This document shows, in pieces, positions 12,001-15,000 of a stretch of 29,019 bases of DNA. Within the stretch, counting starts at the first letter, position 1, and each line of letters starts with the position of its first letter. Source of the stretch: a virus (Duplodnaviria > Heunggongvirae > Uroviricota > Caudoviricetes); the IMG/VR virus record IMGVR_UViG_2579778660_000004, positions 1 to 29,019 of that record. One strand, given 5' to 3'. A program made the position numbers.

Positions 12001-15000
12001 GCGCCGGGCGAAAAGTCATGCCCAGAAGTGGGAGCGAGTTTGCGCCGCGCTGCGGGAGCTGAACAAGCACCGGGATATTGTCCGACAGATTGTCGATTCC
12101 TCCAGTCGTATTGTGTCGGAAAAGTGATTCCTGGGGAGGGCTTATGGCAAAAGTATTTACACAGGAAGAGCGAGAAAAAATTAAAGGGCAGATTGTTGAT
12201 CTCGTACGCCAGAGCGGGCGCGAGACGTTACGACAACTGGAAGCTAAAATGGGGGCAACCAGATATCTGATAAGTATTCTCGCCAAAGAGCTGGTTTCGA
12301 GTGGTGAAGTATACAACTCTGGCTACGGGTTATTCCCGTCAGAACAGGCTCGTAAGGACTGGCAAAACGCCCGCAAAAAACTCTCAAGGGCAAAGGTGAA
12401 GAAAACGGCTGTGGTTGATCCGGACCTTATCAGGTCATTACCAGACGGAGAAATACGCCGCTACGATAGGCGTCAGAACATAATTTGCCGTGAGTGCCGG
12501 AAAAGCGAAGTTATGCAGCGTGTACTGGCGTTTTATCGGGGAAACTTTCAGGAGGTGCTGTTTTGAGCCAAATTAATAATCGGAACTTCGTGAAGTGAAA
12601 GAGAAAGCATAATCCAAATCTGAATAATTAAATTCAGCACTGTGAATAAAATAGAGTCCTTAACCTGAGGGATTTCTGCACCCTCAGAACAGCAGGAGGC
12701 CGCCCGAAAGGGCGGGGGAGATAATAATGGAAATAACTAAAGAACGATTATTGGAAATAGCAAATCTTAGTGATAGGGCATTAAGTGATGGGAGAATTAT
12801 TTCTCCTGATGCTTATGAATCAGTTACAAGTATAGAAATAATAACGATGGCTAGAATGCTTCTTGCGCGCTTCAAAGAAGAATATAAAAAACAGGTAGAT
12901 AGCAATGCTAATATATATGATACTTTGGACAGTTGGGGAGCCTGGGCTGTAGCTGGAAATAGTTCTATTGATTGGCAGGAAATAGCTGATAAATATAAAA
13001 ATGTTGTTCCTCATGGTAAAAAATCACGTCGTCAGTGCAGCAATGATGAAGGGCGAGTTATTGACATTAGTATCCTTAGGTTAGAAAGATATAAGCAACA
13101 AGAATATGAGTTAATTGTTGCTCATTTCGTGATTGGTTTATCTCTTCGTGCTATTGCAAAACAACAAGGATGTTCAGATGGAACAATTCGTAAAAGATTG
13201 CAAAAAGCCTTAGGTTTTTTGACTGGATATATAGCAATTACCAGTTAAGAGTCAGCGGGTTTTTTACCAGTGTAATGGTATAAGGATACTCCCATGTGTC
13301 TTACATGATATGGAAGTGCTGTTGCTGGATGCTTTGTGATACTCTTAAAGCGGAGGGGAGAGCCTTCCGCTTCAATTTCTGCGTCCGAAACGGTCGTAGA
13401 GAAAAATTCTTTCCATTCATTGAATTTTACTGCTGATTTGTCAGACTTTATATAAATTAGAATTCCTCCATGATCGTCACGTGACGTACCCGTGCCGTAA
13501 CGTTCGGTTAGCTGAATCCAGCCATTATGAATAGATTTTGGGCCTCTCCATAATTTTGCTTCACCGATCCATTCGAATTTTCCGAATTGATGTTTAACTA
13601 ATAAATCAACGTGACCGCCATGTTGAGTATCATGTTCAACATCATAAAACCTACCTTTCAGGAAATTTTTGATCGACGCTGTTAGCTCGTCCTCTCCCCA
13701 CTTAGCATCTTGATAGAAGTGTTTGTCATTTTCTAAATTCTGAATAGCGTCGTCTAAATCTTCATAGAGTTGCTTTACAAAAATATTTTTGTCTGCAGCT
13801 AATTTTCTTTGAACCATTCCCCTAAATTCAGGATCCATTCTAATTAATGATTGAAGGTCTGCAGTACAGATGTTTACATCACTCATGCAGACTCTCCAAA
13901 AGACTCGAAGGAGTAAAGTATGGATAAAGATACTGGCTAAAATTATCAACCAATTCGCCAGTTTCTGGATGGTAAAAACTTCCTGTGTCTAAAGCATAGG
14001 AAATAAGATCATCTTCAACTGGTATTGGTTCTTCCGTTAAATTATCCATGTATTGAAAATGCATATCCAATAGGTGTGCTTTATAGCTAGATAAATAATC
14101 AGTTGCTTTTATTAGCAGGATATAGTCATCTTTCGTATCAGTTAGATAGGTCAAACCATTGATAAGGGTTTTGTATGTAAAGTGATTGATATTTTTAGCA
14201 TCTTTACTAACCAGAAAAAGAAAAAGATCACGACACACACTGCGAACAGGATCATTAAAATCCTGCTCTATTTGCGTGATAATGTCGTGATATATACTCT
14301 TTTTCATTTATGGCCTGATGATCTCGCTCTTCTTTTCTCTTCACAGGACTTAACAGAATCCAATATTTTTTCAACAATAAATATAATCGAATCAATGTTG
14401 TTACAGTTCTTCGCAATTGCTTCATGCAACCTAATTCTAGGATTATCAAGCATTGTCCTTTTCCCTGGTAATATTAACTCTACTGATAAAATATGTGAAG
14501 AACTTTGTGGTAAATCCCAAATTTTTCCCAACTTAAACTTTGTCAATATTGGGCTTGCGGACTCTCCACTATGATGGTAAACATCTTGACGCAAACACTT
14601 TTGACTTGGTTTGAGTTTTAAAGAACTTGTATTGCCATCTGAGGTGATAAAAGATACATGAGAAATTCTGCCATCTACTTTTTCGTAAAGATCTTGTATT
14701 GAACCAAATAACTCAAGGGGATTGTTTAAAATAACGCCAGCTTCTTTTTTTATAAATTTAGCCACAAGGTATTGTTGAGGCTGTGATTCACTTCTTGGAA
14801 GGATAGATAAATCAATCGTAAGAATTAATATTTTTTCTGCAGGCATTAGCATGATGGTATTAAAGCATTGCGTGACTTGGCGTGTTTTGCATTTTATTTC
14901 TCCACCATTAGCACGTAATTCCATACCCGCATCGCTAAGATGTGTTGGGTCAAGCTCTATCACTTCAGTGTAATACGCTTTGGATAAAAAAACAGCAGTG

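Follow-up and report, generated by a model that had tools for sequence, protein, structure and literature searches.

A conserved 59-nucleotide leader at the left border of a variable cargo region in lambdoid prophages of Escherichia coli

A stretch of 29,019 nucleotides (nt) from the IMG/VR virus record IMGVR_UViG_2579778660_000004 (positions 1 to 29,019, referred to throughout as the window) corresponds to a Rac-type lambdoid prophage, integrated beside ttcA, in which three closely spaced inverted repeats are found inside a 160-nt gap that separates the lygF/DUF977 gene from a gene of the Q antiterminator family. A preliminary description, prepared from the sequence alone, had presented these repeats as the hairpin-rich boundary of an island of low guanine-plus-cytosine (GC) content. 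Comparisons with related phages and bacterial genomes indicate that the last two repeats belong to a conserved core of 59 nt (12657-12715, plus strand), which consists of UCCUUAACC, the second hairpin, a strong Shine-Dalgarno (SD) sequence (AGGAGG) and the third hairpin, which corresponds exactly to the span covered by all 19 phage matches, and which borders a region of exchangeable cargo genes. The explanation that best accommodates these observations as a whole, and for which the case stands about evenly balanced, is that the core represents a conserved non-coding leader that serves both as the flank of a cargo hotspot and as a ribosome-binding site (RBS) for the first cargo gene.

Distribution and boundaries of the conserved core

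The core was found at 4072 places in 2601 of 5426 complete E. coli genomes, and is thus conserved prophage sequence, rather than the end of an inserted island or a part of a three-part unit as had initially been supposed. Among the 2609 matching records, 2494 have a best copy of at least 90% identity, and EDL933 contains two copies; the core is also present in Rac-, mEp460- and Stx-type phages, and is unannotated in every record examined. The block starts exactly at the sequence UCCUU, is invariably on the same strand as the early-right operon, and always stands at the entry of a variable region that is closed by a hok/sok module. According to a covariance-model search, 52 of 60 sources contain a single full copy per prophage, with two units occasionally present; the search returned no additional diverged copies beyond the known copies and split forms; a variable-gap pattern scan of genome contigs gave chance matches apart from one in Citrobacter braakii (L265; related records and contigs are cited below by such numbers), which is genuine. 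A literal full-text search of the literature for the hairpin sequence found no paper.

The 160-nt spacer as a whole displays matches in 2661 of the 5426 genomes, at no more than six places per genome, and these fall into classes that differ at their left ends, which lie at q1, q42, q52 and q91 in the numbering of the spacer. Nearly all of the classes that reach its right-hand part end at q149, which corresponds to 12715 and is the last base of the third hairpin; the remaining classes (q1-104 to q1-111) end at or before the second hairpin. The left part of the spacer (12567-12656, plus strand), as delimited by the starts of these match classes, is a patchwork rich in adenine and thymine (AT), in which 12567-12607 travels together with lygF, and 12608-12656 has its homologue, in other phages, in the 3' end of a different gene and the adjoining flank.

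At least four genes have been seen upstream of the core (lygF, a methyltransferase gene, a gene for a hypothetical protein of 118 amino acids (aa), and a rac22-like gene) and at least five unrelated genes downstream of it (a Q-like gene, a gene for a 167-aa hypothetical protein, a DUF7167 gene, DUF4014-like genes, and others). Homology among phages with differing cargo ends 0-9 nt past the last base of the third hairpin, and alignment of the window to relatives that carry other cargo, which had been recommended as a means of locating the junction, loses homology at 12715 and recovers it at 15559-15572. The GC fraction falls from about 0.50 before this point to 0.32-0.40 from 12716 on, and fine GC profiles indicate that the shifts in composition coincide with both homology breakpoints (12715/12716 and approximately 15560). 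The placement of the hairpins at the edge of a low-GC segment was therefore borne out both by the comparative junctions and by the composition of the window. Because homology and GC content both break at these two positions, the low-GC island corresponds to the variable content of the hotspot (12716 to approximately 15560, with genes on both strands), comprising the Q-like gene and three convergent open reading frames (ORFs) on the minus strand; the island includes the Q-like gene itself, and does not lie upstream of that gene as was first described.

The conserved right flank of the region is the hok/sok module (15572-15894, plus strand), within which Rfam recognizes sok at 15572-15744 with a score of 91.7 bits and a hok ORF occupies 15712-15894; this flank is common to the window and to L001, L004, L043 and L044. 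Since the core is conserved, and since homology stops after the third hairpin and resumes at hok/sok, the hairpins are part of the fixed left flank of a cargo-exchange hotspot and are not inserted DNA. The core thereby displays the features by which a mosaic boundary or homology linker is recognized (a short conserved sequence, unrelated modules on both sides, and breakpoints at its ends), and these comparisons make it highly probable that a conserved block exists with a recurrent junction at its 3' end. The preliminary description had held that the hairpins would lose their interest as a junction if they proved to be conserved core prophage sequence unrelated to it; they are indeed conserved core sequence, yet they are tied to the junction, because the block is the fixed flank beside varied cargo.

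It could be argued that the block has no function at all, that is, that its repeats are chance features within a stretch whose conservation reflects only its recent origin and its spread by recombination along with adjacent sequence, and that its motifs are the scars of deleted small genes. The homology of the left spacer to the 3' end of another gene fits this proposal, as does the structure of L046, in which an inserted 70-aa gene separates the GGAGG arm of the second hairpin (which acts as the SD of that gene) from the unit formed by AGGAGG and the third hairpin, and in which the placement of that gene between two SDs is compatible with a deletion origin of the consensus. However, both ends of the block are sharp, as seen in three or more left and four or more right contexts, its high identity is maintained despite unrelated flanks, and the window and L004 are 92.5% identical across the 160-nt spacer as compared to 81% across the stretch that contains it (12135-13187). 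The invariance of AGGAGG, and the distance of 6-11 nt held by the start codons beyond the third hairpin (both described below), point in the same direction, and a complete lack of function is considered unlikely.

In terms of DNA, the two flanks, leader and hok/sok, would act as left and right homology arms, through which cargo cassettes could be swapped between co-resident lambdoid prophages. Such exchange by homologous recombination, from leader to hok/sok, is inferred from the anatomy of the region, and the presence of recE/recT in the window prophage itself is consistent with it. The modular-exchange view of lambdoid mosaicism, with its conserved linker or boundary sequences, is said to go back to Botstein's module theory, and the relaxed homologous recombination that Rad52-like recombinases (Red and RecT among them) carry out was reportedly described by De Paepe and colleagues in 2014. 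The core resembles such lambdoid linkers in that it is short, conserved and non-coding and marks a gene boundary, with unrelated modules adjacent to it, a second conserved flank (hok/sok) and RecE/RecT encoded by the prophage; it differs from them in that it is just 59 nt long, in the unusual sharpness of its ends, which match RNA structural elements, and in that the exchange is deduced here from sequence.

The exactness of the junction might alternatively be explained by a DNA-level site for a site-specific enzyme, or by a point at which a hairpin induces breakage or template switching, and at least four independent junction types do begin within 0-1 nt of the 3' base of the third hairpin. 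Selection for an intact RBS or hairpin would account for the same pattern, however, and the block has no linked integrase or recombinase gene, no attC-type core sites were evident upon reading of the sequence, and the block is not repeated at the right edge of the region; a DNA-level site of this type is regarded as highly improbable. The more specific ideas of an attC site or of a hairpin from a diversity-generating retroelement (DGR) were rejected on the same reading, which revealed no core sites and neither an integrase nor a reverse transcriptase nearby.

Promoter-early stem-loop (PeSL) cassettes of T4-type phages, as reported by Arbiol and colleagues in 2010, are said to flank variable ORFs. 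The leader shares with these cassettes a small expression signal and a stem-loop that border hyperplastic regions, for which a role in mediating shuffling has been proposed; it differs from them in that no promoter is found in it and in being present usually as one copy per prophage, rather than as many. Assignment of the leader to this class was rejected on those two grounds (the first as judged from promoter consensus).

A candidate ribosome-binding site for the first cargo gene

All three inverted repeats were recovered by an inverted-repeat search, with the correction that the stem of the second comprises 7 rather than 8 base pairs (bp). Palindrome 1 (12620-12625 paired with 12632-12637, plus strand), formed by CTGAAT and ATTCAG around a 6-nt AATTAA loop, is weak (-4.2 kcal/mol) and AT-rich, and is absent from the match class q91-149. 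In other phages it overlaps the stop codon of the upstream gene (in L043, the stop sits within the 5' arm), and it is probably incidental, a by-product in the form of a gene-end remnant. Hairpin 2 (12665-12671 paired with 12681-12687, plus strand), in which CTGAGGG and CCCTCAG enclose a 9-nt loop, reaches -11.5 kcal/mol in the window; the consensus of its relatives has a stem of 5 bp (-7.2 kcal/mol, z -0.9). The 7-bp form is lineage-specific and its lower stem is unconserved, with the U-A pair (21-43) found in 2 of 66 distinct relatives, which favors the proposal that the block lacks a function. The 5' arm of this hairpin is SD-like (GGAGG in relatives) and its 3' arm is anti-SD-like (CCCUC), and the structure is probably a by-product of such remnants. 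Hairpin 3 (12700-12705 paired with 12710-12715, plus strand), in which CCGCCC and GGGCGG close a GAAA tetraloop of the GNRA type, and the 3' base of which is the recurrent mosaic junction, is the sole robust structure of the three (-12.4 kcal/mol, z -3.3), and is among just five GC-rich 6-bp hairpins found in 29 kilobases (kb).

Abutting hairpin 3 on its 5' side, and adjoining it in every copy, is the strong SD sequence AGGAGG (12694-12699, plus strand), with a calculated anti-SD duplex energy of -9.8 kcal/mol. This motif is unchanged in 20 of 20 variants within a sample that was anchored on palindrome 1, and not on the SD. The hairpin is followed by 6-11 A/U-rich nt and then by the ATG of whichever gene comes next, such that the linear distance between the 3' end of AGGAGG and the AUG amounts to 22-27 nt in all 12 of the 12 downstream classes; in 10 of those 12, the spacer is without complementarity to the 3' end of 16S RNA (no duplex more stable than -1.2 kcal/mol). 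In five of six natural contexts the predicted pair probability of hairpin 3 is approximately 1.0.

These features reproduce the geometry of the T4-type split RBS, that is, a distant SD together with an intervening, stable hairpin of 16 nt (here a predicted one) that leaves 6-11 nt before the start codon. In the T4 genes 38 and 25, the hairpin brings a spacing of 22 nt down to 5 nt and one of 27 nt down to 11 nt, respectively, and destabilization of the intervening hairpin leads to lower translation (Nivinskas et al. 1999; Malys and Nivinskas 2009; both reviewed in PMC3014915). By analogy, the core would correspond at the RNA level to a translation-initiation leader for the first cargo gene, in which folding of hairpin 3 would reduce the distance between SD and AUG from 22-27 nt to 6-11 nt; because a second SD is lacking in most cargo classes, hairpin 3 would have to fold out in order to shorten that distance. 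The likeness to the T4 genes extends to the SD at 22-27 nt from the AUG, to a stable hairpin of about 16 nt that lies wholly between them, to a folded spacing of 5-11 nt, and (for most cargo classes) to the lack of an alternative SD. The present case differs in that one leader serves many unrelated genes in temperate lambdoid prophages, in that a second SD lies past the hairpin in some classes (including that of the window), in that no gene follows a few of the copies, and in that it is known from sequence and predicted folding. A hairpin-bridged, or 'split', RBS is nonetheless the best-fitting function for hairpin 3, and is put forward tentatively, as a model that falls somewhat short of an even chance.

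Scans of the window and of L043 for sigma-70 promoters and for terminators found nothing in the leader, which would accordingly be read within the early-right transcript. Inspection of the spacer by eye for small ORFs revealed only frames of 5-20 codons with no conserved start, and an upstream ORF that might end at the TAA or TAG past hairpin 3 has no start codon.

The conservation of hairpin 3 was assessed in a sample of 66 distinct sequences, anchored outside the hairpin, in which 96% of its cells are paired. The changes observed there include 24 one-sided changes to G.U (as read on the plus strand) and one double change from G-C to A-U, for which both single-step intermediates are present. 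The loop is nearly invariant as GAAA, and in the two cases where it has changed, to GGCA, it still corresponds to a GNRA tetraloop. The structural evidence that the hairpin is functional is modest.

A series of observations must be set against the interpretation of the leader as an RBS. In the window itself, the 11-nt spacer of the Q-like cargo class (12716-12726, plus strand) contains a GGAG of its own (12717-12720) at the canonical distance, 6 nt before the ATG, with an anti-SD duplex of -6.9 kcal/mol; the Q-like gene is therefore independent of the bridged SD, and hairpin 3 is at most auxiliary or insulating in that context. In L012 and L265 the block is kept even though a convergent gene ends 12 nt past hairpin 3 and there is no plus-strand gene to translate, which indicates that it is not retained solely as an RBS. 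Ensemble folds leave AGGAGG just 30-41% unpaired, and consensus versions of the leader are predicted to pair the real SD (AGGAGG) with the CCCUC arm of hairpin 2.

The statistics of folding and of variation belong to the same side of the argument. The 174-nt stretch around the hairpins folds no better than its shuffles (z -1.05, with 31 of 200 shuffles equally good), and 48% of simulated windows contain, at some position, a 100-nt segment with three perfect hairpins of 6 bp or more, such that the hairpin cluster as a whole is within chance expectation. The initial characterization of the region as hairpin-rich holds for the reality of the repeats but not for their clustering, and the folding that it had recommended supports the stability of hairpin 3 but not that of the stretch. 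Covariation within hairpin 3 is not significant (in 219 of 500 shuffles, the pairs changed on both sides are as numerous as those observed, or more so), most of its pairs never vary, and by our own tally the pair-breaking variants of the stem are about as numerous as the pair-keeping ones. In the B lineage (16 of 144 copies), a G.G mismatch in hairpin 3 reduces its predicted probability of formation to just 0.15. The chance-level clustering and the lack of significant covariation are also what would be expected of a block without function.

The predicted pairings have a further possible meaning, in which the core would act as an element of RNA stability, insulation or switching. In one version of this model, hairpin 3 shields the RBS from its context and protects the mRNA; in another, the alternating motifs UCCUU, GGAGGG, CCCUC and AGGAGG form two mutually exclusive folds that open or close the SD. 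Two such folds are indeed predicted: when hairpin 2 is formed, the SD pairs elsewhere, and a fold that combines UCCUU:GGAGG with CCCUC:GAGG sequesters the SD with a probability of 0.7-0.85 in consensus contexts. The exact start of the block at UCCUU, and its retention where no plus-strand gene comes next, would suit either version. However, G-rich and C-rich motifs pair promiscuously in silico, no covariation separates the two folds (because the SD-like arms never vary), and there is no known trigger, and an element of this type is considered distinctly unlikely.

Hairpin 3 might instead be bound as RNA by a protein, either as a boxB-like nut site for an N-type antiterminator or as a repressor operator between the SD and the AUG. 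Its resemblance to lambda boxB (GCCCU-GAAAA-AGGGC) lies in a GC-rich stem of 5-6 bp and a GNRA-type loop, here almost always GAAA, within an early transcript. It differs from boxB in that the loop is a tetraloop rather than a pentaloop, in that no boxA lies upstream on the plus strand, in its distance from promoters (the early promoter is approximately 4 kb away, and not adjacent) and in its single copy, with no second GC-rich GNRA hairpin found near the immunity region by a GNRA-hairpin scan. In addition, the change from GAAA to GGCA preserves the fold and not the sequence, and no candidate binder has been identified, and a protein-bound hairpin appears very unlikely. Among the roles suggested in the preliminary description, the protein-binding site thus found no support, whereas an RNA regulatory element and a recombination junction are both viable readings. 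A lambda-type nut site was specifically rejected, as no boxA-like match (CGCUCUUUA-like, plus strand) is found near 12700, the total number of such matches corresponds to chance, and the position lies approximately 4 kb downstream of the cro-like gene.

Lambda tR2 lies after the replication genes, and the position of the leader past the corresponding genes of the window has suggested an analogous intrinsic terminator; alternatively, the two stem-loops within about 60 nt bear a superficial likeness to put, the antiterminator RNA of phage HK022, and a phage with variable cargo at this site must read through it to the late genes. Either type of transcription element is hardly credible when set against the lack of a U-run, the negative terminator scan and the unconserved structure of hairpin 2. 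None of the three stems is followed by a T-run on either strand, in agreement with the original statement that they are not classical terminators, and an intrinsic (Rho-independent) terminator was rejected in both the window and L043. The put RNAs are approximately 70 nt long, fold into a pair of long, bulged stems, and are located immediately downstream of PL and PR; here, stems of 5 and 6 bp occupy 59 nt at the end of the replication module, and BLAST of phages gave no HK022 match.

Searches of Rfam, which covered prophage small RNAs and the DicF, Sok and STnc100 families, recovered just RalA and sok at the gathering threshold across the whole window, and at E values up to 10 over 11500-14000 returned nothing that overlaps 12596-12726; a chance-level match to mir-1912 (12546-12595, 15.7 bits as compared to a gathering score of 72) overlaps the beginning of the span that was originally flagged. 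The Pas small RNAs (sRNAs) of pathogenic E. coli adjoin holin and lysis genes, and therefore represent a different element.

Implications of the leader

The leader is an unannotated element of a fairly ordinary type, a mosaic linker that is possibly also a hairpin-bridged RBS, and as such is an example of known things; what makes it notable is mainly its prevalence, together with its sharp boundaries and the absence of annotation. A more ambitious proposal, which must be regarded as doubtful, is that it corresponds to a portable expression adaptor: an RNA leader, composed of a strong SD and a GNRA hairpin (possibly with an SD-masking fold), that would give any gene placed after it a context-insulated RBS, and that would also act as the left homology arm of a hotspot in thousands of E. 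coli prophages, including Stx phages. Such an adaptor, if real, would parallel the RBS insulators of synthetic biology, and would extend the split RBS, for the first time, beyond the T-even phages. If the leader acts as proposed, an element of 59 nt would control entry to an accessory-cargo hotspot in the lambdoid prophages of approximately half of E. coli strains; among this cargo are additional Q genes and methyltransferases, as well as orphan genes that could represent defence systems. The element would also provide annotators with a marker for the left border of the hotspot, explain how unrelated first genes are translated without an SD of their own, and offer a tractable test case for short conserved leaders that drive the exchange of modules between prophages. 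Should this reading fail, the leader would be just a well-conserved mosaic joint.

Unusual copies of the core

Two SD-hairpin units in direct orientation, separated by 1-1.7 kb, are found in L293 (589-637 and 2285-2357) and in L113 (7496-7577 and 8560-8608); each unit follows a copy of the same 70-aa gene, and such pairs constitute substrates for deletion or duplication. Contigs of the B lineage (L001, L005, L023 and L037) contain a homopolymeric G tract in the loop of hairpin 2, the length of which differs by several bases between contigs; this tract is slippage-prone, and alters the predicted fold of the entire leader.

The E. coli core block is present at 96.6% identity in PP818812.1 (11353-11411), a record labelled as the Actinobacillus pleuropneumoniae phage vB_Apl-pPE4, for which either the host assignment or sample purity may be questionable. 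An exact 22-mer, AGGAGGCCGCCCGAAAGGGCGG, occurs within an unrelated ORF (...QAQEAARKGGNE...) of another phage contig (L280, 11455-11476), and represents either a coincidence or a clue to the origin of the SD-hairpin unit.

The window prophage and its gene content

The window prophage is almost identical to that of E. coli STEC367. Across the 160-nt spacer the two differ by a single change, from T to G at 12716, that lengthens the G run past hairpin 3 (GGGCGGGGGAG); the G at this position permits slippage in the register of the 3' arm of hairpin 3, and strengthens the local SD.

The early-right operon of the prophage (plus strand) contains, in order, a cro-like gene, ydaT, a ydaU-like gene, ydaV, ydaW/DUF1627 and lygF/DUF977. 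The last of these (12144-12566, plus strand; Pfam DUF977, E 6e-32, with LygF/DUF977 annotation in relatives) is the final conserved gene of this replication operon before the spacer. The ydaU-like replication ORF (9466-10590) is intact in the window, with 374 aa, and is represented by two partial pseudogenes in the PGAP annotation of STEC367; its middle third resembles an inserted domain.

The first of the low-GC cargo genes is the Q-family antiterminator gene (12727-13248, plus strand; 173 aa), which is identified by Pfam Phage_antitermQ (E 2e-31) and by PGAP annotation. The prophage contains two genes of antiterminator type, namely this PF06530 Q gene and a DUF1133 gene (approximately 18690-19232) that is located, according to the STEC367 annotation, directly upstream of toxin and lysis genes. 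Since convergent genes face the PF06530 Q gene, it is without an obvious late promoter or qut site, and may be a stranded copy or a cargo copy.

The three minus-strand ORFs that face the Q-like gene occupy 13245-15401, would encode proteins of 197/234, 142 and 363/365 aa (depending on the choice of start), and have a GC fraction of 0.32-0.38; the first of them overlaps the stop of the Q-like gene by 4 nt. No family was assigned to any of the three by Pfam or PADLOC. They resemble a moron expressed in the lysogen, and they could form an undescribed defence or accessory system.

The RalA antitoxin sRNA is encoded at 1557-1735 (Rfam, 218.7 bits). The late region of the prophage (approximately 19620-23330, as annotated in L003) is rich in toxin genes, and contains a scabin-related ADP-ribosyltransferase, a subtilase-family AB5 B subunit and an enterotoxin A/B pair among holin and endolysin genes.

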